A stretch of DNA of 64,000 nt, from positions 1,218,538 through 1,282,537 of the forward strand of contig CAWKCK010000017.1 in the NCBI GenBank assembly GCA_963848135.1. The letters are read 5' to 3'. Shown here piece after piece: positions 1,390-46,377 of the stretch. How positions within the stretch are numbered: position 1 is the stretch's first letter; every line of letters starts with the position of its first letter. This stretch comes from an uncultured delta proteobacterium. Its GTDB lineage: Bacteria; Desulfobacterota; Desulfobacteria; Desulfobacterales; SG8-13. Below the pieces are notes generated by a model that had not been told where the DNA came from, did no database searches, and saw only the letters and a list, made by a program, of their open reading frames with translations. A program made the position numbers and the translations under genes.

Positions 1390-2325
1390 TTAGTTATAGC
1401 CCATTAAATGTATTGGTTTTTGCTCTTTGTCAAGAGTTTTTTCACCGTCACCGGTGTGGCGTTGAAGCACCTTGTTCATGGCGCTATAGTAATCACGTCG
1501 AACCTTCGGGTTGGAGACCCGACAATACCGCTGCGTGGTTTTTATGCGCGTGTGGCCGAGCAGATCCTGGATGGTAACCAGGTCGGCATCGGCGTTGAGC
1601 ATCTGCGTGGCCATCGTATGGCGAAGTTGATGGCAACAGACTCTCAGCCCTGCTTTGCTGGCATAGAGCTGCATGCGGTGCTGGATGCCGCGGGCCTTGA
1701 GCGGTTTGCCTCTAAAGCGGCCCTTTTCCACCAGGAAGAGCTTTTTGACCCGCGAGTGGGGTCTGGCTTTAAGGTAAGCAGCCAAGGCGGTGTATGCGTC
1801 CTTGCTCAGATAGACCACACGGTCTTTTAGCCCCTTGCCCTGGTAGACAAACACTTGATACCGCGGCAGGTCCAAGGCACTCAGAGTGAGATTGGTTACC
1901 TCTTCGACCCGGAGTCCGCAGCGCAGCATCAGCTTGAAGATGGCCCGGTCTCTGGGATTGTCGATGACCGCAAAGAGCGCAGAGATCTCTTCATCCCGCA
2001 GGTAGCGCGGCAGTGGCCTGGAGAGCCTTAAGGTATACCCGCGCTTGACCGGATTGCTCATTACAACCTCCTCTTCGTTGATCAGGTAATCATAAAAGCC
2101 GCGGATGCTGTCCAGGTAGCAATTGACGGTCTTGGGTTTCAAACGCTTGCTGCGCAGATAATCGATGAAGCCCAATAGTTTCTTGTGGGTGACAGCCTCC
2201 ACGGGCATATCCAGCCAGACGACAAACTGCTTCAGGGTGCTCATATAGGTTCGCAGCGTATGGGCGGAGTAATTGCGTCGCTTTAAGAACCTACGGTAGT
2301 TGATAATCGAGTTGGTAATGTCCAT
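1390..2325 (-). CDS. tyrosine recombinase (second gene of the pair)
   Basis: 311 aa with a SAM-like N-domain. Catalytic motifs are GLRVEE, HQLRHTMAT and LLGHTRIKTTQRY. Confidence 0.9.
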   Translation of the reverse strand: MDITNSIINYRRFLKRRNYSAHTLRTYMSTLKQFVVWLDMPVEAVTHKKLLGFIDYLRSKRLKPKTVNCYLDSIRGFYDYLINEEEVVMSNPVKRGYTLRLSRPLPRYLRDEEISALFAVIDNPRDRAIFKLMLRCGLRVEEVTNLTLSALDLPRYQVFVYQGKGLKDRVVYLSKDAYTALAAYLKARPHSRVKKLFLVEKGRFRGKPLKARGIQHRMQLYASKAGLRVCCHQLRHTMATQMLNADADLVTIQDLLGHTRIKTTQRYCRVSNPKVRRDYYSAMNKVLQRHTGDGEKTLDKEQKPIHLMGYN

Positions 2326-3379
2326 GGAGTTCTCCCTTTTCGACGATGGCCATGGCTTTGTAGTATTGTTCCCGGCGCGTGTTGTCGGTCAGCCGGGCAT
2401 AGCGGCGGGTCATTTCGATGCAGCTGTGCCCGAGAAGCTCCTGCAAACACTGCAGCGGCATACCGGCGTTGAGCAGCTCTGTGGCGAAGGTGTGCCGCAG
2501 GCAGTGCAGGGTGTATCCCTTGTGGGCCAGTCCGGATTTTTGCAGATAGGCGTTGAAGATTAGGCGGGCAGCCGCATAACCCAGGGCTCGCCCGCAGTTG
2601 CCGTAGAAGATGAACCCGCTTTGTCTTCTCCTGGTGTTCAGCCATTTTATTAGAGCGCTTCGGGCATCATCGCTCAAATAGACAACGCGTCCGACCCGGT
2701 TCTTTTGTGCTTCTATGATTTGTATAATATTTTCCCGCAGGTTGAGATCTTCCACTTTGGTGCCGAGCAGCTCGCCGATGCGCATCCCGGTTCGCAACAA
2801 TGTCAATACCAGGGCGCGATCACGCGGTTTTTTGACTACGGCCAACAGCTGCTTGATATGATCCGGATCAATGGCCCGCGGCAGGGCATCGGGAACTTTA
2901 ATGCGCAGTTTGCGCTTGAGCAGATCCGGGTGAAGCACATCGCGATCGATCAAAAAGTTGATAAAGGCATACAGGCAGCGCAACTGAGTGCTGACCGTAT
3001 TGGGTGAAAGCCCGCGGTCTTGCTCATGTTCAACGAATTCGGCGATGTGCTCGCGGGTGATGGCGTGCAGTTGATTGGTGCCACTGTCTTTGAGAAAAAG
3101 TAAAAAACCGGTAATGTTGCCACCGTTGGATCGGATCGTGTTGGGTCGGCAATTGCGTCGATGCTGATTGAGCAAATACGCCCTGACATGCTCTGCAGCC
3201 ATGAGATCCTGCACGGTGATTTTGCGTAGGATTCGGTCAATAAGAGGATTGAAAGTGAAGGGATTTCGATCGAAATTGGAACGGACCGAGGACGAACGAA
3301 TTGATTTGTCCTTGCCGGACCGATGCCTTTTGAGTTGATCGGTCTGGATTTCTGCGGAAACGTGTTCGAGGTTCATCAC
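2291..3379 (-). CDS. tyrosine recombinase (first gene of the pair)
   Basis: 362 aa with GMRIGEL, HCLRHTFAT and LLGHSCIEMTRRY. Its 3' end overlaps the next recombinase gene by 35 nt. Confidence 0.9.
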   Translation of the reverse strand: MMNLEHVSAEIQTDQLKRHRSGKDKSIRSSSVRSNFDRNPFTFNPLIDRILRKITVQDLMAAEHVRAYLLNQHRRNCRPNTIRSNGGNITGFLLFLKDSGTNQLHAITREHIAEFVEHEQDRGLSPNTVSTQLRCLYAFINFLIDRDVLHPDLLKRKLRIKVPDALPRAIDPDHIKQLLAVVKKPRDRALVLTLLRTGMRIGELLGTKVEDLNLRENIIQIIEAQKNRVGRVVYLSDDARSALIKWLNTRRRQSGFIFYGNCGRALGYAAARLIFNAYLQKSGLAHKGYTLHCLRHTFATELLNAGMPLQCLQELLGHSCIEMTRRYARLTDNTRREQYYKAMAIVEKGELHGHYQLDYQLP

Positions 3380-3464
3380 TGCCTCCTTTCGTTTTTAGCA
3401 GAAAAAACAGGCAGATAATGACCTCTGTAACACTTTCAGTCAATTACCTTTTTATGTCGTACAG

Positions 3465-3530
3465 TGGCAAGAAATGTTTAGTGGTGAACCACTTTGTAGT
3501 ATTGACGGGATTTTGTTTAACGTGAAATGA
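3465..3530 (+). repeat. AJR copy 1 resumed after the insertion (TGGCAAG + gtaTTGACg segment)
   Basis: tggcaag..tagtattgacggg matches the tggcaag..gagtattgacc segment of the other copies. Confidence 0.6.
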
Positions 3531-3991
3531 ACGTTGACGTAAGATCATAACTTAAGATGATAAAGAGATAAGGAAAATATGCCCGGTATTCTAACTTAAC
3601 AGGTTTTACAAAAACTGGGAGTAAAGTACTACTATGCGTATTAAGATATTCTTTGCCAGGGTGCTCGACGCTGTTTTTGGTTGTCTGCTAACGGTTGCAT
3701 GTTGCAACCTATTATCTGTAGTATTGGTATTCATAAACATCTTAAATATAGCGAATCCTCTATTGGCAGTCCAACATCCTTGACAAACTGCAACGAGTTA
3801 GTAGCTTAAATCCAAACTTGGGTTGTTAAATGGCCTTGTAATACTTCCAGCATCTCTTCTGTTTCCAGATATTCGCATCTAAAACTTCATAAGTAATCTT
3901 ATGAAGCCTTGTATGGAGTCAGATAATTCTTATCCGATCAATCTTAAATTAATCATCAATTCAGTACCAATAGACAATAAACAAAGAAAGG

Positions 3992-4570: not shown

Positions 4571-4604
4571 TTTGGAACAATTACATTTGTTGCTGTCAAA
4601 ACGC

Positions 4605-4717
4605 AAACTCAATGTACCTGCTATGACCTTTGAGCTATCACATGGTTGGTTTGCTTGAGATAGCCGAATCGTATATTCATTTTTAACGGTATTTTTGATA
4701 GTTACGGAAGTGGCAAT
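4605..4717 (+). repeat. AJR copy 2 (uninterrupted left-core-R)
   Basis: aaactcaatgtacctgctatgacctttgagctatc..ttgcttgagatagccgaatcgtatattcatttttaacggtatttttgatagttacggaagtggcaat. Confidence 0.85.
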
Positions 4718-5037
4718 ATTTTTTATAACCCCACCACAAATATTCACCGATAGGTCACACACCAAAACAGTACAATGTATTATAAATATCTAAAATAATA
4801 TATTTTTGTTGACATTATTTCTCCTCAACAATAATGAATTTAATATTCAGCTCCTTCCGCATCTGATGCTCCATACCGAATCTACATCCATTGTATAAAT
4901 TATCTAAATCCACTGAGCTGATTTTCGACAAGATTTATATAGCCGACCAAGTTTTTAATTACCGTTCAATTACTGGTAACACCTAAACAATACTACAATA
5001 GTTGACTATTAGATTTGCTTCCCAGAGGAGGAATCCT

Positions 5038-6530: not shown

Positions 6531-6672
6531 ATCTCCAACGTATCTTAAATATATTTGCCCTTCGATTATTTCCACATTGTAAACAAATCGTAAGGCGAGA
6601 CCGACTCACACTTACTGCTATGACCTTTAAGCTATCATCTGGCCGATTTGCTTGAGATAGCCAACCGGTATC
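6531..6672 (+). repeat. AJR copy 3, left half (ends ..cttgagatagccaaccGGTATC)
   Basis: ctccaacgtatc..cttactgctatgacctttaagctatcatctggccgatttgcttgagatagcc. Confidence 0.85.
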
Positions 6673-6718
6673 TAACGAATAGAGGGGTGAAGCCAACCAA
6701 GGGATTCACCCCTTTCGT

Positions 6719-7556
6719 TTAGCAATATAGGTTTTCAATCCACCTCATCGCCTCTGTATCACTGATTGTTCCAAGATACCGCTGAGTGGTTGCAAGATTT
6801 GCGTGACGGAGAATGACCTTGCTCACGATTTCGATTGGCGCTCCGGATCGAGAGGCATAAGTAGCCGAATGCCGCCGCAGTTCATGGGGTCTCAAATGGA
6901 TACCGACCATCTTTCCCGCTTTTTTTACAACCAGCCTGGCCGCTGCATAAGTAATCGGGAAAATGCGATCATCTGGCCTGTTATAAGTCTTAATGGCATA
7001 GTCACGAAGCCTGGCAGCCACTTTCTGCGGGATGAACACAATCTCATGCTCTTTACCGCTTTTCGGTTCTCGCAGGATCAGCTTTCGATCCTGGATGTCA
7101 TTCACTCTGAGTTTTAACACTTCACCGATTCGCATCCCGCCACGGGCCATCAGTTCAAGCATCAAACGATTACGAATTTTGGTGGTTCGGAAAATGATTT
7201 CATCAACGGTCTCTTTTTCGATGATTTCCCATCTGGATACCACCCTTTCCCGATACAGTTTTCGGATCATAGGCGTATCGCAAGGATTGCCTATACCAGA
7301 GTCGATGTTATTGCGGAAAAAATTGAAAAAGGCGGACAGGTAGGAATAACGGACTCGCTTTGTGTAGGGCTTGTTACCATTGGTAAAGCTGTTCAGAAAG
7401 GAAAGGACATCATCCGGTGTAACCTGTTCAATCTCAGCATCACCGAACTCCCGGCAGAATCGGTCAATAACTGACCAATAGGACCGAACGGTATTTTTTT
7501 TTCGAGTGGGCCTTGTGGTAATCGATCCATATTTTTGCGGCTTCGGCCACTTTCAT
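6719..7556 (-). CDS. AJR-embedded tyrosine recombinase, copy 1; full length needs a one-base correction in an A9 tract
   Basis: ATG at 7556 with RBS gaggagg. The frame breaks in A9 (7494-7502). With 8 A's the reading is MKVAEAAKIWIDYHKAHSKKNTVRSYWSVIDRFCREFGDAEI..MARGGMRIGEV..HELRRHSATYA..ILRHANLATTQRY, about 279 aa. Confidence 0.8.
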
Positions 7557-7613
7557 GGTTTACCTCCTCTGGTTATTGATGTTTGACAATCGGGGAAATC
7601 CCGAGGTAAACCA

Positions 7614-7643
7614 ATGATACTCAGAAAGTATATTCAGTTTCAA
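7614..7643 (-). promoter_or_regulatory. candidate recombinase promoter spanning the module/AJR junction (TTGAAA-N18-TATCAT)
   Basis: The -35 lies in the AJR right half (7638-7643) and the -10 in the module (7614-7619). The same geometry occurs at 19275-19304. Confidence 0.45.
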
Positions 7644-7674
7644 CGCTATTTTCGATAGTTACGAGACTGGCAAG
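7628..7674 (+). repeat. AJR copy 3, right half
   Basis: gtatattcagtttcaacgctattttcgatagttacgagactggcaag matches 4671-4717. Confidence 0.85.
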
Positions 7675-7755
7675 ATACTCATAGCTACGAATGCAGCGTA
7701 TAGAGGCAGAATAGCCCGATTAAGCTCCATTCCTTTTATCAATTTACCAAAATTC

Positions 7756-7882: not shown

Positions 7883-8233
7883 ATGGCGAAGATAACAATT
7901 TACCTGAAAAGAGGAGACGTAGATGCTGCCACGCGCGCGTTTCAAATGGCCAAGTTGGCGCATTCCCAGGGGCATCAAACTAGCCTGTTCATGTCCGATG
8001 ATGGCGTGTATTGGGCGGACAAAAACCGGAGTTTGGACGAAAAGACCGGAACCAACGACACGGCAAGCGAATTTTTTCCCTATCTGGTGGAAAACGAGGT
8101 GCCGATCTACGTCTGACCTCCCTGCGCTGAAGCTCGCCAGGTTGGCGAGGAAAACTTCTATTCCAACATGACCCTGGCCGGGGCCCCGAAATTGATCGAA
8201 CTGGCAGCAGAAGGGAGTGTAATAAGTTTCTAA
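7883..8233 (+). CDS. DsrE/DsrF-like selenoprotein (in-frame UGA at 8114-8116)
   Basis: The frame stays open through TGA: ..VPIYV-U-PPCAEARQVGEENFYSNMTLAGAPKLIELAAEGSVISF*. The post-UGA part completes the DsrE fold, with U at the conserved Cys position. Confidence 0.75.
8133..8149 (+). promoter_or_regulatory. SECIS-like hairpin (CTCGCCA-GGT-TGGCGAG)
   Basis: Perfect 7-bp stem with a GGU apical loop, starting 16 nt after the UGA. Confidence 0.6.
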
Positions 8234-10260: not shown

Positions 10261-10381
10261 CTCAATACCACATCGTAGCAATTGACAATAGTAGCCCTTC
10301 CTGTATTGATTATTTTAGTCAGAATAGCCAAAACGTATCGGCATAATTTATAAAATTTAGCGGCGTTACTCTATTGGCAAA
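10261..10381 (+). repeat. AJR copy 4 (diverged)
   Basis: ctcaatacca..tcagaatagccaaaacgtatcgg..gcggcgttactctattggcaa. Confidence 0.6.
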
Positions 10382-11127: not shown

Positions 11128-12632
11128 TGGTTATATAACGTTGCAAAACTGATTTTTGCTTTTGAAAAACAGGCACAAAGAAATGGCAGATAGCCATTTC
11201 TCCACTTTCATCACCAGGAAGCACAGTGCAATGGCCGTCTCACTGGTAGATGCCAACTTTGTCATCAACCGGCCGATACCAAAGCGCCGTTTACCCTGGC
11301 CGAACTTGCCCTCTATCGGTATCCGATCCAGTTCATCCTGCCGTGCCTGAACGGCTTCGGCTTTAAGTCGGGCGGCATTCTCTGCGGTCACCTTCGGTGG
11401 TCTTCCCAATCTCGGGCCCGACAACCGGATGTGGTGTTTCTTGCAATAGCGAAGATTGTCTCGCGTGCGGTAGATCCGATCTGCATGCACCGACTTCGGA
11501 TAAAGCCCGAAACGCCTCTTGTAGGATTCTACCTGGCCTTTCAGGTCTAAACTTTCGTTGAAGTTGTCCCAACTGCATCGATCCACAAAATCGTAGCCTT
11601 CTACCAGGCTGACGGATAATTTGGGGCCGAATTCGGTATCGCTTCCGGCCTTGCCCCTTTTTATCGGCAACACATGCGGTAGGCTGATGCTCACGATTCG
11701 ATCGCTGATCCGACGGATGCGGTTCTCATACATCCAGCGTTGCTGACGGTAGAGCTCGCTGACCACCAATAGATCTCTATATTGTTTTCGGTTGAGAACC
11801 CTTAGCCCTGTTGACTCAGATAGCTTGTCGATGCTTGCCAGGTTGCGATGCAGATAGCCCAACTGACCCCGGAGTGCTTTACGAAGCTTTCGGCCGCCAA
11901 CTCTCCTGCTTTTGGCCACAGCAAGGTAGGCTTTTCTGGCCTTTACTCGATAGGTTCGAGGCTTCTTAAAACCTCGGCCACGGCCTTTATGCAGCACGTC
12001 TATGATCTGCTCGCTCTTCTGCCGGGCGGTGTTCAAAAGCTTAAAATCGGTCGGATAGGTGATGTCAGCCGGAACGCAAGTCGCATCGAGCACCTACTTA
12101 CCCTTGATGGATGGGCCTTGTGGCTGATCATCATCTTTTTTGATGCTCTCAGAGGCCCTGGTGACAATGACCTCATTGACATGCTTGAGAACATCGACGG
12201 AAAAGCGTTTTCGAAAATGCACCAACATGGTGGGATGAAAGGGTGACTCGGTAGTAAATTGCTGCAACCCACAAAAATACTGCAGATAGGGGTTCTCTCG
12301 GATCTGCTCCACGCACTCCTCGTCGGTCAGCCCCAGGCGCTCTTTAGTAATCAGTGCCGCCAAGGCCATGCGCACTGAAAGGGCCGGTGGTCCTTGACCG
12401 TTGCCGGTAAAATTCCGGCAGTATTTCTCTTCGAACTCGTGCCAGGGAATCACCTCTGCCAATCTGACCCAGCGATTGTCCGCTGGTAATTTACCACCGA
12501 ATGGCAGGTGAAACTCGACAAATTTCAGCTGTTTTTCATTGTGTCTGTACATAATCTCCGGCGCATTGGTGCAAGGAATTTTGGTGATATCGCTTGTTTT
12601 TCGTGCACTTTTTGCAACCGAATAAGCATAAT
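11128..12632 (-). mobile_element. IS5/IS1182-family insertion sequence (approximate ends)
   Basis: Imperfect IRs around ..ataacgttgcaaaact (about 11135-11150) and ctttttgcaaccgaat (about 12608-12625). Confidence 0.6.
11131..12552 (-). pseudogene. IS5/IS1182-family DDE transposase interrupted by one in-frame TAG
   Basis: ORFs 12094-12552 and 11131-12093 are contiguous in the same frame: ..PSIKGK*VLDATCVPADITYPTD... InsH-type N-domain plus DDE domain. Confidence 0.8.
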
Positions 12633-14461: not shown

Positions 14462-14637
14462 AAACTCAGACTCAAATTCCTGCTACATAGAGAACCTGTA
14501 GGTATTTCTCAAATGCTCATCATAGCCACATCATACCTTCACCGATGATATAATTGTTGACAGTTGGTGGCAAGCAGGTTTGATTATTGACCCATCCTAC
14601 GATTTTAAATTACTCTCAATGTATCTGTAGCCGACAG
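14462..14637 (+). repeat. AJR copy 5 (complete, with promoter segment)
   Basis: aaactcagactcaaattcctgcta..catagcc..tggtggcaag..tattgaccc-N18-tactctcaatgtatctg. Confidence 0.8.
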
Positions 14638-15261: not shown

Positions 15262-15448
15262 TCCAACGTATCAAACGAATGTGAGAACTCAAATCTGCTG
15301 CTATGGTCCAACATCTATCACTCGGCGGATTTCCTGAATATAGCCAGACGATATCGTGATATTTGGCGTAATTACGGATAGTTTGACCTGTGGCAAGCAA
15401 GTTTGAGTATTGACCGGCCCACAGATTCAACCTATGCTCAATCTACAC
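15262..15448 (+). repeat. AJR copy 6 (complete, with promoter segment)
   Basis: ctccaacgtatcaaacgaat..aactcaaatctgctgctatgg..cggcggatttcctgaatatagccagacgatatcgt..gatagtttgacctgtggcaag..TTGACC-N17-TATGCTcaat. Confidence 0.85.
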
Positions 15449-18256: not shown

Positions 18257-18333
18257 GAACTCAGACTCAATGTATCTGTTATGATCCTTGAACTATCATC
18301 TGATCAAATTGCTTGAGATAGACAATCCGCATC
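18257..18333 (+). repeat. AJR copy 7, left half
   Basis: gaactcagactcaatgtatctgttatgatccttgaactatcatctgatcaaattgcttgagatagacaatccgcatc. Confidence 0.85.
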
Positions 18334-18381
18334 AATGGCATAAAGGGGTGACACCCAAAAAGGGGTTCACCCCTTTTTGCA

Positions 18382-19218
18382 TTAACAATAAAGGTTTTCA
18401 ATCCAGCTCATTGCCTTTGTGTCGCTATTTGTCCTAAAATACCGCTGAGTGGTGGCCAGATTGGCGTGACGGAGAATGATTTTGCTCACTATTCCGATTG
18501 GCACTCCAGATCGAGAGGCATAGGTTGCCGAATGTCGCCGCAAGTCATGCGGTCTCAGGTGAATTCCAACCATCTTTCCCGCTTTTATTACAACCAGCCT
18601 GGCTGCTGCATAGGTATTCGGGAAAATGCTGTCATCTGGTCTATTACAAGTCTGAATGGCGTAGTCACGGAGTCTATCAGCCACCTTTTGTGGGATAAAA
18701 ACAATCTCATGTTCTTTCCCGCTCTTCGGTTCTTGAAGGATCAGTTTTCGATCCTGAATGTCATTCAACCTGAGTTTCAGCGCCTCACCAACCCTCATAC
18801 CCCACGGGCCATCAGTTCGAGCATCAGTCGATTGCGAATTTTGGTAGTCCGGAAAATGATCTCATCAAAGGTATCTTTTTCGATGATTTCCCATCTGGAT
18901 ACCACCCTTTCCCGATACAATTTTCGGATCATGGGCGTATCGCACGGATTGCCTATACCAGAGTCGATGTTATTGCGGAAAAAATTAAAAAAGGCTGAGA
19001 GGTGGGAATAGCGGACCCGTTCGGTGTACGGCTTGTTGCCGTTGGTAAAGCTATTGAGAAAGGAAAGGACATCATTCGGTGTTAATTTATCGATTTCGGC
19101 GTCGCCGAACTCCTGGCAGAATCGGTCAATAACTGACCAATGCGACCGCACGGTATTTTTTTTTCGAGTGGGCGTTGTGGTAATCTATCCATATTTTCGC
19201 GGCTTTGGACACTTTCAT
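18382..19218 (-). pseudogene. AJR-embedded tyrosine recombinase, copy 2 (same A9 tract plus an extra frameshift)
   Basis: Estimated ~85-90% DNA identity to copy 1 by eye (not computed). A9 tract at 19156-19164. A second 1-nt deletion lies at about 18797 (..LELMARGV* / MRVGEALKL..). Confidence 0.8.
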
Positions 19219-19288
19219 GGTTTACCCCCTTTGGTTATTGGTGTTTGACATTCGGGGAAATCCCGAGGTAAATCGATGATACTCAGAT

Positions 19289-19335
19289 CGTATATTCAGT
19301 TTCAACCCCATTTTCGATATTTACGGGACTGGCAA
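19289..19335 (+). repeat. AJR copy 7, right half
   Basis: gtatattcagtttcaaccccattttcgatatttacgggactggcaag. Confidence 0.85.
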
Positions 19336-19453
19336 GTTGTATTAATTTTTTAGTGATGAGTTTTTCCTGGCAAATCTGATCTGCTCATCAGAAAAATGAA
19401 AGAGGTGTTTAAAGACATTCCTAAAACCCATAAGTTAAGGGTTCTGAGATAAT

Positions 19454-20447: not shown

Positions 20448-20565
20448 ATTTGCAATTAGCCGTGAGGGAGCTGGTTGCCGTGCACCTGAGAATATATCAT
20501 GGATACCAACTGAACATGAGGCTTATCGAAACCTGTCCTATACCCGGCAAACCTGTCCCCACCTC

Positions 20566-20678
20566 AGCAAAAATGTACCCGTTATGCTAACAAAGCTATT
20601 CTCCGGTCGGTTTTAATGGTATAGCCAGAACGTAACTGAATATTAAGTGTAAATTCTTACGGTTACGACTTTCGCAAG
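20566..20678 (+). repeat. AJR copy 9
   Basis: caaaaatgtacccgttatgctaacaaagctattc..aatggtatagccagaacgtaac..ttacggttacgactttcgcaag. Confidence 0.7.
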
Positions 20679-20860
20679 CAACCACAAGAATCGGTGGGCT
20701 GCGTTTTTGTAGGATAGCCATTACGGACCCGTCCGGTCATTAAGATTCAGCCACTGCCCGGAAGCCTAAAAATTAACCAACCATCTAATTTACAAAACGA
20801 GAAATGCCTTAAAGAGCGACATGATTAAGTATTGGCGCCGCGTGGTCCAGCCCCCTATAT

Positions 20861-22099: not shown

Positions 22100-22206
22100 C
22101 CGAATCTATATTTTAGCGGCTTTGGTCACTTTCATAGTTTACGCCCTTTGGTTATTGATGCCTGACATTCGGGGAAATCCCGAGGTAAACAGATGATACC
22201 CAAATC
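22100..22206 (-). pseudogene. stub of a third AJR-embedded recombinase module (5' UTR plus first ~9 codons)
   Basis: ATGAAAGTGACCAAAGCCGCTAAAATATAG plus a conserved leader (gacattcggggaaatcccgaggtaaac). Homology stops near 22100. Confidence 0.7.
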
Positions 22207-22253
22207 GTATATTCAGTTTCAATACCTATTTCGATAATCACAAGACTGGCAAG
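22207..22253 (+). repeat. AJR copy 10, right half
   Basis: gtatattcagtttcaatacctatttcgataatcacaagactggcaag. Confidence 0.8.
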
Positions 22254-22283
22254 AAAGCCGTTGTTTTCAACTGTCTGATTTTC

Positions 22284-22309
22284 GTGAGATAGCCATATCT
22301 ATTGGCAAT
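22284..22309 (+). repeat. AJR mini-copy 11
   Basis: gtgagatagccatatctattggcaa. Confidence 0.45.
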
Positions 22310-23834: not shown

Positions 23835-24087
23835 TTCGACAGTCTCGCTATATTTCTTGAGTTTTTATCTGGTCGATTTGCTTGAGATAGCCACACCCTA
23901 TCGTTTCAGATGGCGTGATTTCCTATAGTTGGTTTCTTGGCAAGAAAACTTAAATTTCTGAAGAGTCTAAATCTTTCTGATTTCACCTACGTATATGGAA
24001 TGTTTAAATTATTCAGATAGCAAGCACGATATTTTTACCATTGTGCTACATTGTGGTGTTGACGTTTGAATTGCTATTGGGTTATGC
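23835..24087 (+). repeat. AJR copy 12 (with long promoter-type segment)
   Basis: tctcgctatatttcttgag..tctggtcgatttgcttgagatagccacaccctatcgt..cctatagttggtttcttggcaag..tgctacattgtggtgTTGACG-N17-TTATGC. Confidence 0.8.
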
Positions 24088-25699: not shown

Positions 25700-25828
25700 T
25701 TTGAAACTTTCAAAAACCTGAGATAGCCAGACCATATCGTAACAGGTGGTATGATTTCCAATAGTTGTGCCTGTGGCTGTCATGAGTATTGACCCGCCCC
25801 ACAGATTCAACCTAATCTCAATACATCT
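25700..25828 (+). repeat. AJR copy 14 (with promoter segment)
   Basis: cctgagatagccagaccatatcgt..ccaatagttgtgcctgtggctg..gagtaTTGACC-N18-TAATCTcaatacatct. Confidence 0.8.
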
Positions 25829-26898: not shown

Positions 26899-27047
26899 AA
26901 TATTTGGCAGGGCGATGGATTTCCTGAATATATCCATACGGTATCGCTATAATAAACAAAAATTAAGATTGTTACGAGACTGGCAAGTTAAGTTTAGTGC
27001 TCTGCTACATTGTGGCAATTGACGTAACATACCAATTAGGTTAAGGT
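26899..27047 (+). repeat. AJR copy 15
   Basis: ggcgatggatttcctgaatatatccatacggtatcgct..gattgttacgagactggcaag..tgctacattgtggcaaTTGACG. Confidence 0.85.
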
Positions 27048-27169: not shown

Positions 27170-28655
27170 GGCTACCTTATGTAACATCATAAAAGTTGCA
27201 TGTTGGAAGCTCGGTTTTTTTATTTAAAAATTCGGTTCTTCTCCCGATTAGTGGGAGAAAGCCTGGTAGATTTTTAATGTAAAGTAGCGTAAATCGTGGA
27301 ACCCATAGGCTTTACGTTTAATGACCTTTATTTTGTTATTTACCCCTTCAAGTTTACCGGTATGAATGGGGTAATCACAGTGGTTGAGGATACCGTAGAT
27401 ATATCGTTCCAGAGTTTTAGCAAAGGCGTTTACAGATGGATGATTCAAGGATCGAGCCAGTGAGCACCAGTCATCAAGTGCCTTGATCGCCCAGGTTCGT
27501 GAACGGTAAGTCCAGATATGTTTGAGCTTCTCTTTTAGGATCATGACAGTGTTGATGGTTTCGTTTAGTGCCAGAAGTTCTTTGAGATGCTGCCTTTGCT
27601 CCTGGGTCTTCAGATTTTTTCGGTTTTTCAGCAACAGATACTTGGTGCCTTTGTAAACGTTTTTATCTTCCTTGGCGGCATTGCGATATTCGCTGTTTCG
27701 TACTTTGTCGATGACGCGATTAAATTTGGCGACCACATGGAACAGATCGAACACGATTTTAGCGTGAGGCACTTTTTTTTAACGGCTTTGATGAACGGCT
27801 TCCACATGTCCATCACAACCGCCTCGATGCCGGCGAGTTGCTTCCGGCTGAGCTGATTGAAAAAGCGTTTGAGCGTGTCGGCCTGGCGATGTTTTCCGAC
27901 ATAGACCACCCGGCCGCTCAGATAATCCAGGACCACCGTCAGGTAGCGATGGCCCTTGCGCACGGAGATCTCGTCTACCGCCAAAATACGCAGGCCGTTT
28001 AAATCGGGCTGCCCGTAGTCGTGCTCCAAGTAATATTTGTCGATGTTCTTGACCGTTTTCCAATTCAACCCCAGGTGCCGAGCGACCTCGGAGACGGTCA
28101 TAAATCGGCATAATTGATATACGTAACGCGCCATCCGTTGGGTGACTCTCAAATAGGGATGAAAGAGCTCCAGATCCTCGATATGAATGCCATGGCAGTG
28201 AGCGCAGAACACTTTGCGGTAGCGACAAGCCAGCCAGACCCGGGCGGTGGCCATGTTCAGGTCCCGCACCTTGCGCTGGGTCCAGCTGTGAACGCCAGTG
28301 GCCCTGCGGCCGCAGCCGTGGCAGACTGGTGCATAGCGTCCGTCGGGCTGCATCTGGATGTGTGCAGTGCCGGCATCGGCTGTAACACTCTGATTGGTAA
28401 TTTTGATTCGACCAAAAGGGAAATAAGGTGCTATGGTGGGAACGGACATCGCAGGCCTCCTTTGGATATGTTTTTTCTTGGGCGAAAAAACCAATACCCA
28501 TAAGAGATACCGGATGTCCATTCTGTTTTAATCTATTACACACTTTTTTTGCCCTGCTTCACTACAACTAATTCGGATATGATCCAAAAATTCCACACTG
28601 ATTTAAAATTGAATTTAAAGGTATGTCTCGCTTTGAGAGCCATAATATCGTTCCT
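27170..28655 (-). mobile_element. ISL3-family insertion sequence (ends approximate)
   Basis: The right end reads GGCTCTCAAAGCGAGAC in reverse complement at 28655. The left IR is not convincingly resolved. Confidence 0.45.
27248..28449 (-). pseudogene. ISL3-family transposase, frameshifted in an A8/T8 run (27773-27780)
   Basis: MSVPTIAPYFPFGRIKI..zinc-finger CHGCG..CAHC..DMWKPFIKAVKKK | VPHAKIVFDLFHVVAKF... Confidence 0.8.
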
Positions 28656-29145: not shown

Positions 29146-29198
29146 TATTACAAAATTTTAAGGGATTAAATGACGTTATTTTAAAAAAACAATATCAA

Positions 29199-29326
29199 GT
29201 AAATGTATCTGCTATGACCTTTGAGCTATCTTACAGTTGATTGGCTTGAAATAGCCGGATCGTATCTATAGATCCTACTGGCAAATCGCCATTCAAACTT
29301 ATGGCAAGTATTCAATATGCTATAAT
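29199..29326 (+). repeat. AJR copy 16
   Basis: taaatgtatctgctatgacctttgagctatc..ttggcttgaaatagccggatcgtatc..cttatggcaagtattcaataTGcTATAAT. Confidence 0.85.
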
Positions 29327-30165: not shown

Positions 30166-30302
30166 CTCCAACGTATCAAACGAATTGGTGAACTCAAACC
30201 TGCTGCTATCTAAACCAAGTTACGCCATCCTAAAATCCCTTGGGATAGCCGAATGGTATCCTTATAGAATCCTTGGCCATTCAAATTAACGATTATAGCA
30301 AG
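30166..30302 (+). repeat. AJR copy 17 (last copy)
   Basis: ctccaacgtatcaaacgaattggtgaactcaaacctgctgctatc..cccttgggatagccgaatggtatcc..cgattatagcaag. Confidence 0.8.
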
Positions 30303-30883: not shown

Positions 30884-30957
30884 GGGGATGTAGCTCAGTT
30901 GGGAGAGCGGGACGTTTTACGTCTATGTCGGGGGTTCAAGTCCTCCCATCTCCACCA
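30884..30957 (+). tRNA. Ala-type tRNA-like gene with a non-canonical anticodon arm (pseudo-tRNA?)
   Basis: GGGGATG/CATCTCC acceptor with G3:U70. AGCTCAGTTGGGAGAGC D-arm, GGGGG-TTCAAGT-CCTCC T-arm, encoded CCA. The anticodon arm GGACG-TTTTA-CGTCT has a 5-nt loop, giving 74 nt in total. Confidence 0.6.
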
Positions 30958-35383: not shown

Positions 35384-36106
35384 GTGCGCCACGAGGGCGT
35401 AAGATGCCAGCGGGTGCAAGTCCCGTCCGGGAAATTATCGGTTCATCCCGGTAGCTACCCAGACAGTGGGACAGGGAGACCTTCCTGCTGAAGCTCTGGG
35501 GAAAGATGTAAGCCGCAAGGGCTGCAGCGACCTGGCAGGCCGTAACGCGCGTGAACCCTGAGAAGGCCTCGAAAGTACAGTTGTGGATGCCGACCCGCCC
35601 AATATTCGGGGAAGGCCGCAGCGGGATGGGTACGTAACCGATCCACCTATTCCGGTCCACCGGGGTAATGGGGACAGCATGTCAGGAAGGTATCTTGGGT
35701 AACGTGGGAGACCCGTCCCGGACGCGGGGTCGCGACCCGCAACAGCGTGTTTGACGTTGGTTCGGGCGGGACTCGGAGAGGGCCATAGTACCGTTGAAAC
35801 CGGGTAATGCCGGTGGAGGGAAGGGCCCTTACTTCTGGCGTGCTTTCGAAGGAAACGAGATGCGGTGATTGGCCTTCGGGTCTACTAAACACCTGATATT
35901 CGGACTTTCCAGAGAAAGCTTTACCGCAGGGCGAAGGTGCAATGGCATTTGATGCACTTGCGAGGTATCCAATGAGAAATGCCTCCCGCCGTGTGCCTTA
36001 CGGTGAGGCCAGTCGGAAAGCCGGATGCGGGAGATCCGCATGTCCGGTTTGATGAGCGGGGATGGGAAACGGGGCTTCATGCTACCGCGCCCATCCTCGA
36101 CTCTAC
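35384..36106 (+). mobile_element. ORF-less group II intron-like RNA (~723 nt)
   Basis: 5' GTGCG. Domain V AGCCGGATGCGG-GAGA-TCCGCATGTCCGGTT at 36019-36049 has the AGC triad, a 2-nt bulge and a GNRA loop. A domain VI-like helix follows, ending ..CTCTAC. No RT ORF is present. Confidence 0.7.
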
Positions 36107-45327: not shown

Positions 45328-46377
45328 CTCGTCAGAAACACGGCGCGGAAAAGGAAATCGATCGGGATCGACTTCCGGATCGTTCTACTCCCCGCGCCTT
45401 CCCACACCGCTTCGTTAAGGATAGCAGTATGCGATGTAGTGGCTCTTGCGGGTTTCGTCCCCGGATACAGCGGCGGGTCCGTGCCGGATTTTCACCGGCT
45501 TCCCTAAATGGCCTTCTTAAAGGCCGCCAACAACGGTATTTTAATTATCGAGCGCTTTATCTATATTTCGGGAAAAGACATGTCAAGAGTAAACTATTGT
45601 TGTTTCGGGTCACCGCCCGCTGTGAAAGCGGTGGCGTGTTTACTTTACTGCTGAGGAAATAAAACACCGGTTTCATAGCTTTCGATGGAATAGCTGTAAC
45701 TTTGTGTGCCGAGCTTGACGATTTCCCGATACACGAGCAGCTTTCGCGGCAGTGTCCATCCGCTCTGGGCGCCGTCAATATTTGCCGTTTGAATTTGGTA
45801 ATACAGGCTGTAATTGTTGGTGTCTTGAACTCGATAGATGCAGCGGTTGTTGGCGGGCACCCACACCGCACCGTTTTCTTTGGCTTTGTATATGCCCTGG
45901 GTACAATGCGGATAATCGCGCCTGAATATTTATCTCCTGACTGGCTTCGGCTAGTAAACAAAAACCATACCAACCGGGGCAGACGATGAATAAAATTACA
46001 AATTAATAATTATTCTAAATTCTTAAAGGCATATCATCCATGGCGAGACTATTGACAAGGCGGGTAAATAAACCAAATCATTTTACCATTTTGGTATGGT
46101 AGAGAACAAAAGTAAAATCATTCCTGTTATATAGAAGAAATCGTATCAAATTGGTGCGGTACAGTTAAAAAGTCCCCAAAACCACAGCGAAACCGGCCGG
46201 ATACCTGACAGTTACTCGTCGATAGGCGCTCTCGATTGGGTACGTCCATCGACATTTCGTGGGTTGTCATGATTTTATTTCAGAATGGAAAACCTGGCCC
46301 TCGGGGCCAGTCGAAGATCCCACCATCGGGGGTCAGAAATAATCGGCTATGCCTCAGAGCAACACTGTTTATTGGTT

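Follow-up and report, generated by a model that had tools for sequence, protein, structure and literature searches.

A run of nine adenines (A9) that splits a tyrosine recombinase gene is probably an evolutionarily maintained recoding site, with its conservation pattern pointing to programmed slippage by RNA polymerase, which would shorten A9 to A8 in the transcript, as the main mechanism. The gene is found in two copies within the window, the 64,000-nucleotide stretch of DNA from an uncultured delta proteobacterium that was analyzed, and copy 1 would be a working example of the proposed slippage-gated design. The features of copy 1 include:

7494..7502, minus strand: A9 tract of copy 1, the proposed recoding site (T9 on the plus strand).
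7464..7556, minus strand: ORF1, the 30-aa product of standard decoding (sequence MKVAEAAKIWIDYHKAHSKKKYRSVLLVSY*), with its ATG at 7556.
6719..7495, minus strand: recombinase body frame, codons 21-278 plus stop (258 codons), with the stop at 6719.
7563..7567, minus strand: Shine-Dalgarno (SD) sequence GGAGG, 6 nt upstream of the ORF1 ATG.
7614..7643, minus strand: promoter-like TTGAAA-18-TATCAT with 10/12 matches, a consensus match only and within shuffle expectation.

Codons 19-21 of copy 1 are AAA AAA AAA, and the body frame begins at the eighth A (AAT, Asn21). This frame, which lies one nucleotide ahead of ORF1 (..KKNTVRSYWSVIDRF..), is open until the stop at 6719 and can be entered only after one A is lost or two are gained. 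Deletion of one A yields a continuous recombinase of 278 codons (278 aa) from the gene that is split after codon 20, and the first 20 codons of ORF1 (the head) form the conserved N-terminal segment of the N-terminal (core-binding) domain. An earlier note on this DNA had placed the break in both copies, at 7494-7502 and 19156-19164, with a stop 10 codons past KKK; the tract is found at both positions on the minus strand, and the copy 1 stop is the 10th codon after KKK. The window includes two A9 runs, and dinucleotide-preserving shuffles give 2.9 +/- 2.6 (two or more in 69 of 100), a range within which the count falls, such that a statistical excess of A9 runs was dropped as a candidate signal. 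Thus, the significance of the tract rests on its position and conservation, not on the count. An Rfam scan provides no match at the recombinase locus.

By its domain and structure matches, the gene is a small Xer-like (simple) tyrosine recombinase. The repaired 278-aa product matches Pfam Phage_integrase (PF00589, E=7.6e-22) and N-terminal SAM-like domains, including a SAM_3 match (residues 4-56) that spans the frame junction, which bears out the earlier reading that removal of one A restores a SAM-like N-domain continuous with the catalytic domain. Alignments to the solved XerA/XerD structures start at residues 10-16 and also span the junction, and the alignment of the C-terminal part to Xer recombinases of solved structure extends through the ..TTQRY.. 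segment (with the catalytic residues read by eye from the sequence). The PDB matches are XerC-like and XerA. The best NCBIfam match is of the XerA type, at 126 bits and below the cut-off of 220, and the integron IntI profile (TIGR02249) scores 60.9 bits against a cut-off of 265 and covers residues 15-187 only.

The second copy and a 5' remnant of the gene are located further along the window:

19156..19164, minus strand: A9 tract of copy 2 (T9 on the plus strand).
18382..19218, minus strand: copy 2 gene, with the same A9 break and a 1-nt deletion near 18800.
22104..22254, minus strand: solo 5' remnant, comprising R-left (half of the R repeat described below), the leader and the first ~40 nt of the ORF.

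Over 1062 bp, copies 1 and 2 (6615-7674 and 18276-19336) share 85.1% identity, within the ~10-15% divergence that had been judged by eye. The deletion near 18800 converts GGCGGG to GG-GGT and produces ELMARGV* where copy 1 reads ELMARGGMRIGE; thus, a change at the tract alone would not repair copy 2. It is a pseudogene of the same design as copy 1, and the low dN/dS between the two (0.077 at pS 0.445) indicates that its extra lesion is recent. The remnant has TGG changed to TAG and is cut off ~20 nt before the tract position. The earlier note took the A9 in both copies as an argument against two independent accidents; taken alone, however, this retention leaves a single shared ancestral inactivation possible, and it is the selection analysis (below) that excludes such an event.

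Relatives of the repaired protein number in the thousands by protein search, and many are exactly 278 aa and in frame. The closest relatives are mostly called either as 256-aa truncations or with N-termini in the wrong frame; LITTRPIRKKNT, for example, corresponds to the head translated in the body frame. Two collections of loci were compared: (i) a genome scan of 80 loci in other species, drawn from one-genome-per-species data as the best tblastn hits, a choice that favors intact copies, and (ii) an ORF-blind metagenome census of 120 loci, found on contigs by the DNA pattern GAYTAYCAYNNNNNNCAYTCN-A7+. The frame is broken at the same A-run in ~50 of the 80 genome loci and in most of the metagenome loci, and the split layout is common to 48 genome loci and ~80 metagenome loci. 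Among the best 80 genome hits, 31 loci carry TCN-A9-(T/C)AC with the head offset by +1, matching the window, while C-A8 (15 loci) and GG-A7 (2 loci) are found at the same spot with the same offset. The opposite offset is displayed by two diverged loci with TCA-A7, an A8 run (L045 and L068), and by L049, a near relative of the window copy that is broken elsewhere. The metagenome loci of the window type (~62) include 50 with A9, 9 with in-frame A8, ~3 with A7 and 1 with A10, and the sister subfamily of opposite offset is represented by 26 metagenome loci, all TCA-A7 (A8 run) and none in frame (0/26). The in-frame relatives have SKKNT with A8 or lack a run (SKENS, SRENT, SKHNT and SKPNT).

In a neighbor-joining tree, the frameshifted clades are large and interleaved with in-frame clades, and the A9 tract is an invariant block in an alignment of 17 diverse homologues. 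The homologue alignment that the earlier note had proposed as a check reveals that the split ORF with A9 is the rule in the nearest clades (31 genome loci and 50 of ~62 metagenome loci). Uninterrupted ORFs without a homopolymer, which the note had listed as evidence against recoding, are confined to the more distant in-frame clades (SKENS, SRENT and similar). A phage origin was considered and rejected, as the family is essentially absent from IMG/VR (one partial match).

The frameshifted loci include examples from the complete isolate genomes of Desulfosarcina widdelii PP31 (NZ_AP021875.1, at 604.8 kb) and D. variabilis Montpellier, from MEGAHIT and SPAdes short-read assemblies and from long-read MAGs, a spread that excludes an artefact of any one platform. 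As some platforms are prone to errors in homopolymers, a sequencing or assembly error that hides a true length of A8 could be suspected; the probability of such an error is, however, close to nil, as the same extra base is present in the two window copies and in more than 80 independent loci from isolates, Illumina metagenomes and long-read MAGs.

Purifying selection acts on both halves of the ORF in their respective frames, and the split gene is not dead. An intact body of 258 codons is kept in 45 frameshifted genome loci, in which head codons 1-18 have a pN/pS of 0.43 in the ATG frame compared to 1.09 and 1.11 in the other frames. The body of the frameshifted loci has a pN/pS of 0.31 in its own frame compared to 1.18 off-frame, and the in-frame relatives are at 0.32 (head) and 0.26 (body). 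The closest frameshifted sister pairs (pS 0.09-0.44), which include A9/A9 and A8/A8 pairs, have dN/dS values of 0.04-0.14. Translation signals are also retained: a GGAGG/AGGA-type SD sequence precedes the head ATG in all 42 frameshifted loci (42/42), at a distance of 5-15 nt overall and of 5-9 nt in 41 of the 42.

These values bear on the proposal that the tract is a hotspot of recurrent inactivation, in which in-frame A8 copies serve as active masters and the A9 copies are dead, perhaps mobilized in trans, with a low dN/dS that derives from the masters. The element is multi-copy, A9 is one slip from A8, and many copies are broken elsewhere, including copy 2 and ~45% of the metagenome A9 copies (23/50), which indicates that many individual copies are decaying. 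By contrast, the low dN/dS persists between the closest A9/A9 and A8/A8 frameshifted sisters, which argues against A9 copies as the dead offspring of masters, and the share of copies with extra lesions is similar for A9 (23/50) and in-frame A8 (3/9). The best 80 genome hits include no intact in-frame master of the A9 clade, although such a master would score best. Furthermore, each subfamily changes in one direction only, in-frame alleles never lock the run with AAG, and the SD and ATG are kept in every one of the 42 loci. Recurrent inactivation is, on this evidence, quite improbable.

Expression of the body alone, by an internal start or by re-initiation after ORF1, would generate an N-terminally truncated recombinase. 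Public gene calls are of this form, with the 256-aa products beginning at V23 or at upstream TTG codons. The body frame of the frameshifted homologues, however, has no conserved start codon, with the first ATG/GTG/TTG scattered across residues 4-100, and in copy 1 no such codon is present before Met96; thus, no conserved independent expression of the body is apparent. The 20-codon head is, moreover, under purifying selection and part of the N-terminal domain, and production of the body alone is very hard to credit.

The homopolymer itself is conserved beyond coding need, i.e., the run is selected. Elsewhere in these genes, AAA accounts for 59% and AAG for 41% of the conserved Lys codons, yet 48 loci have an unbroken run, and the longest of the other A/T runs in the body are 4-7 nt. 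A G inside the run is noted in three copies: L108 and L126, which are from metagenomes and also broken elsewhere, and L012, which is from a long-read MAG and has an intact body. The length distribution is sharp and one-sided within each subfamily, with A9 far exceeding A7 in the window type and only A8 in the sister subfamily, which is not the pattern expected of unselected homopolymer drift or of a classical contingency locus. The out-of-frame length is fixed in ~80% or more of loci across species, beside A8/A9/A10 variants among near-identical copies.

Such variants raise the alternative of heritable phase variation, in which replication slippage between A9 and A8 activates the gene in rare cells, with A9 as its resting OFF state. 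Poly-A tracts are known sites of slipped-strand mispairing (PMC3711429). In-frame A8 alleles are found beside A9 alleles with identical flanks (L186 vs. L120/L177 and L188 vs. L191), a 99.5%-identical pair differs by two A's (L049 with A8 and L093 with A10), with L202 of the same lineage in frame at A9, and 5 in-frame proteins are present among ~45 close homologues. Pure-run in-frame alleles among close relatives (L186, L188 and L202-L206) and a lineage that holds A8, A9 and A10 (L049, L202 and L083/L093) indicate that DNA-level length change also occurs and could contribute. The overall distribution, however, argues against a phase-variable gene: A9 is present in 31 of the ~35 genome loci of the A9 clade and an intact in-frame A8 in none, the -1-type subfamily has no in-frame alleles (0/26), and the excess of A9 over A7 (50 vs. 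~3) is not the symmetric spread of unselected slippage. Known contingency loci have broad length distributions; they share with the tract a homopolymer near the 5' end of the ORF, ON/OFF lengths and some A8/A9/A10 polymorphism but differ in that the out-of-frame length is here fixed across deep divergence and the lengths are strongly asymmetric. Some of the in-frame calls may, in addition, be errors, as they derive from assemblies that are long-read or of low coverage. Phase variation is thus an unlikely main explanation, if the least unlikely of the rivals, while DNA-level length switching is real at some level, is compatible with transcriptional slippage on the same tract and may act alongside it.

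A second alternative acts on a faithful A9 mRNA, with the ribosome shifting by +1 or sliding on AAA AAA AAA. The tRNA-Lys is slippery on A-runs, and members of the sister subfamily (L045, L068 and L082) have an in-phase -1-type A_AAA_AAA (TCA AAA AAA ACA) that leads into the body frame. Depending on the species, dnaX is recoded by frameshifting or by slippage (PMC1088944). The window type, however, needs a +1 shift, its -1 frame is non-coding junk, and the codon that follows the run in the 0 frame is TAC or CAC, which provides neither a stop nor a conserved rare codon. The upstream bases vary without a conserved SD-like stimulator, and no downstream structure is conserved among 17 diverse loci. 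The stop of ORF1 is 3-34 codons downstream of the run in the frameshifted homologues and is not conserved in position. Efficient +1 frameshifting is not known to take place without a pause signal. Two specific forms of recoding are disfavored: a prfB-like +1 frameshift, as a stop or hungry codon at the shift and an upstream SD-like stimulator are lacking, and a structured -1 frameshift in the window, as the -1 frame is non-coding and no structure is conserved. While the tract resembles prfB in the early +1 frame change that is required for the full-length protein and is conserved across taxa, it differs by the absence of an in-frame stop at the shift, of an SD-like stimulator and of a CUU-type slippery codon, and the homopolymer is the sole conserved element. 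A stimulatory RNA structure was rejected: RNAalifold predicts 0 pairs around the tract among 17 diverse A9 loci, and the single-sequence fold at the tract has a z of +0.45. Recoding by the ribosome on the window-type tract is considered improbable, somewhat more so than phase variation.

Transcriptional slippage, the preferred mechanism, would account for both types of offset. The +1-type and -1-type subfamilies share only the long A-run, and slippage gives insertions as well as deletions, which fits the polymerase as the source of the frame change. In the proposed mechanism, RNA polymerase on the T9 template could realign within the ~9-bp A:T hybrid, such that the complete 278-aa enzyme (..HSKKNTVRSY..) would be encoded by a minority of transcripts, those with A8 (or A11), while the templated A9 transcripts would give only the 30-aa peptide. 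The net effect would be a low ceiling on recombinase output, as in IS elements, and recombination at the R repeats that house the gene would be limited as a result. A point against the mechanism is that subfamilies with only A8 or A7 should slip less, though A7 sufficed in IS1447 (see below).

The tract has several sequence properties of slippage sites. The run is of a slippage-prone length (9 or more, and at least 7 in IS1447) and is A7-A10 in the homologues. As in the A9 sites of IS elements, the ORFs overlap, the run of 9A is conserved and the fused product has homologues encoded by a single ORF, of which the many 278-aa in-frame homologues are examples here. Baranov et al. (2005) use a conserved ORF layout together with a 9A run in non-identical homologues as the criterion for functional slippage and find only transposases and mapW in their survey (PMC1088944); the split layout and run of the recombinase are conserved together many times over in non-identical homologues. 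The slippage reading of the earlier note is thus supported by the conserved split layout and by selection in both frames, with the A9 to A8 step itself still inferred.

The closest parallel is IS1447, an IS3 family element of Clostridium thermocellum in which slippage is shown at A9T; its downstream ORF lies in the +1 frame, and an A8 variant was used as the in-frame control (PMC6211511). Of 52 cDNA clones of IS1447, 9 have A8 and 8 have A10, while the genomic DNA is A9 in 30/30, and a run of A7 is sufficient for slippage (PMC6211511). The recombinase has the same motif and geometry, with A9 followed by T, a +1 downstream ORF and A8 in frame, the runs of the family are 7-9 A's, and in both cases a recombination enzyme of a mobile element needs a slip to be made at full length. 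The two differ in that IS1447 encodes a DDE transposase instead of a tyrosine recombinase, its OrfA is a sizeable protein whereas the upstream part is here just the first 20 codons, it has a predicted adjacent stem-loop whereas none is conserved here, and slippage was measured there but is inferred here. Thermus thermophilus dnaX (A9) and Shigella mxiE (T9) also have a 9-nt A/T run in the coding region and heterogeneous mRNAs, and in mxiE, as proposed here, the longer functional protein requires the slipped transcript. By contrast, slippage yields the shorter product in dnaX, a nucleotide is inserted in mxiE instead of one deleted (or two inserted), and both are single-copy cellular or virulence genes and not part of a multi-copy element.

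In the literature covered (Sharma et al. 2011, MBE, falling outside the scope), neither slippage nor programmed frameshifting was found to be described for any tyrosine recombinase, and there is no mention of such a case in Antonov 2013 and its supplements, the Atkins 2016 review or the Smyshlyaev 2021 classification of tyrosine recombinases. The mechanism is of a known kind, and what appears to be new is a pure gate with a 20-codon head and an Xer-like family with both directions of shift. The upstream ORF is too short for a second product, and the site would thus work purely as a dosage gate.

The gene is housed in an array of repeats (R), and the features of the array that relate to copy 1 are:

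6673..7624, minus strand: recombinase-only insert of ~0.95 kb inside one R unit, defined against the uninterrupted R at 4600-4718.
7622..7676, minus strand: R-left half flanking copy 1 (nhmmer).
6602..6683, minus strand: R-right half flanking copy 1 (nhmmer).
4600..4718, minus strand: uninterrupted R unit (empty site), with R-left joined to R-right.

Comparison of the occupied and empty R units identifies the gene, its leader and a 3' hairpin as the ~0.95-kb insert. The insert includes a 68-nt leader, the gene, a GGGGTGA...TCACCCC 3' hairpin and the half-site GTTAGATAC, and the promoter-like site at 7614..7643 spans the junction between the R-left half and the insert. The attL junction is GAATATAC-GATC|TGAGTATCAT and the attR junction is GTTAGATAC-CGGTT|GGCTATCTCAAG, compared to TGAATATAC-GATTC-GGCTATCTCAAG for attB at the empty site. 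The attP reconstructed from these sequences would be GATAC-8 nt-GTATC, a typical core of tyrosine recombinases. Homology between related copies in different contexts stops ~110-165 nt 5' of the ATG and ~95-115 nt 3' of the stop. Among other genomes and the window, only the window site at 4600-4718 was recovered as an empty R, the available flanks being too short to generalize, and no terminal overlaps indicative of excised circles (circular or tandem-collapsed) were detected in 55 short contigs.

Units of the R family are found at 14 sites in the window, from 1.25 to 30.3 kb and all on the minus strand, with none beyond 30.3 kb. Between the units lie unrelated small genes and IS elements, and the array ends ~600 nt before a tRNA gene. 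The closest homologues elsewhere are also flanked and accompanied by R units in the same orientation. This arrangement is similar to an integron in that a tyrosine recombinase accompanies a series of repeats, all in one orientation, that separate diverse small cargo genes. It differs in that the recombinase does not match at the level of an IntI, R forms no hairpin fold, and the recombinase gene is within the repeat unit instead of beside attI. An attC-like hairpin was rejected for R, as its ssDNA folds (z = -0.36 and -0.46) are no better than shuffles, and membership among the integrons was rejected on this folding and on the IntI profile score below cut-off. Thus, the resemblance is organizational only.

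A tentative reading, less probable than the slippage proposal, is that the array represents an undescribed mobile system in which a ~0.95-kb recombinase-only element with its attP inserts into the core of R, a multi-motif repeat of ~120-140 bp, and arrays of R in the same orientation separate diverse cargo near a tRNA gene. Such a system would be integron-like in layout but would use Xer-like recombinases and double-stranded core sites, with output gated by obligatory slippage and with +1- and -1-type gates in one family.

For annotation, gene calls for the copies in Desulfobacterota genomes and sediment metagenomes describe integrases truncated at the N-terminus, whereas the proposed true product is the 278-aa recoded protein. 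Programmed slippage, known so far from DDE transposases and a handful of cellular genes, would extend to a tyrosine recombinase. The +1-type A9/A8/A7 gates, the -1-type A8 gates and the runless in-frame relatives of this one family constitute a natural experiment in which the influence of run length and slip direction on expression can be studied, and the proposal is directly testable since two cultured Desulfosarcina isolates carry intact examples. The gate probably restricts rearrangement of the R-repeat cassette array and may help explain how the large genomes of sulfate reducers are plastic yet stable.

The R repeat family includes 14 copies of ~120-140 bp, all on the minus strand, that span positions 1254-30268 of the window and have in common the blocks CTTGCCA, AACTATC, CGATAC, GGCTATCTCAAG, GATAGCT and ATAGCAG. 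No R copies occur in the window beyond 30.3 kb, and the array stops ~600 nt short of a tRNA gene (30884-30954). Unrelated small genes are set apart by the R units, a layout that is cassette-array-like but is not an integron.

R units of the window (approximate coordinates)
1254-1353, minus: R unit
4600-4718, minus: R unit
6602-6683 / 7622-7676, minus: R unit in two parts
10321-10381, minus: R unit
14522-14575, minus: R unit
15282-15398, minus: R unit
18260-18324 / 19279-19338, minus: R unit in two parts
20564-20679, minus: R unit
22264-22299, minus: R unit
23836-23945, minus: R unit
25719-25777, minus: R unit
26912-26988, minus: R unit
29193-29308, minus: R unit
30186-30268, minus: R unit

The A9 recombinase gene, an Xer-like tyrosine recombinase with a frame split at its A9 run, looks like a ~0.95-kb insert within the core of an R unit, with boundaries placed by setting the occupied site (6673-7624) against the empty site (4600-4718). 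The attL, attR and attB sites derived from this sequence comparison have a common ATAC core, and the attP, as reconstructed, would be GATAC-8 nt-GTATC. Two further tyrosine recombinases, which share just 23-24% identity with the A9 recombinase, are encoded at the R array's left end, where they adjoin the R unit at 1254-1353. The Rfam matches listed below are unrelated to the A9 recombinase finding.

Other tyrosine recombinases and Rfam matches
1390-2325, minus: tyrosine-recombinase gene
2291-3379, minus: tyrosine-recombinase gene, overlapping the former
35417-35675 and 36016-36106, plus: group II intron domains
45343-45546, minus: cobalamin riboswitch

Relatives of the recombinase include a sister subfamily (L045, L068, L082 and some 25 further metagenome loci) with the opposite frame offset. 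The site of this subfamily, CAT TCA AAA AAA ACA, contains an A8 run that includes the in-phase heptamer A_AAA_AAA. To reach the full frame, either an A must be inserted or the ribosome must shift by -1, and none of 26 loci has an in-frame allele. Two in-frame (A8) recombinase copies (227-991 and 3067-3831) are found in the same orientation and 2.8 kb apart at L078 of a Desulfarculia genome. This spacing is similar to the distance in the window between the second, pseudogene copy and the solo 5' remnant. In two long-read MAGs the tract reads A6GAA (L012) and A7TAA (L018), yet apart from this both genes are intact, with low dN/dS relative to A9 neighbours; the odd bases may be base-calling errors inside the homopolymer, not real breaks.

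Other genes of the window with an in-frame stop codon or a frame split
7883-8233, plus: DsrE/DsrF-like ORF with in-frame TGA (8114-8116)
11131-12552, minus: IS5/IS1182-like transposase (DUF772 + DDE_Tnp_1_2) with in-frame TAG (12094-12096)
27248-28521, minus: ISL3-family transposase in two frames, with an A8 run (27773-27780)

The DsrE/DsrF-like ORF is a candidate selenoprotein. Its TGA falls where relatives would carry Cys (..PIYV-U-PPCAEAR..); with TGA read as Cys, the Pfam DsrE match reaches the C-terminus and covers almost the whole profile (positions 13-116 of 116, E=2.7e-18). The TAG, the sole interruption of the IS5/IS1182-like transposase, may have arisen by nonsense mutation or may serve as a read-through/Pyl codon. 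The frame of the ISL3-family transposase breaks at GTT AAA AAA AAG, an in-phase A_AAA_AAG heptamer, past which the -1 frame continues the transposase (..AVKKK / KVPHAKIVFDLFHVV..). This A8 run is a candidate second recoding site in the window.
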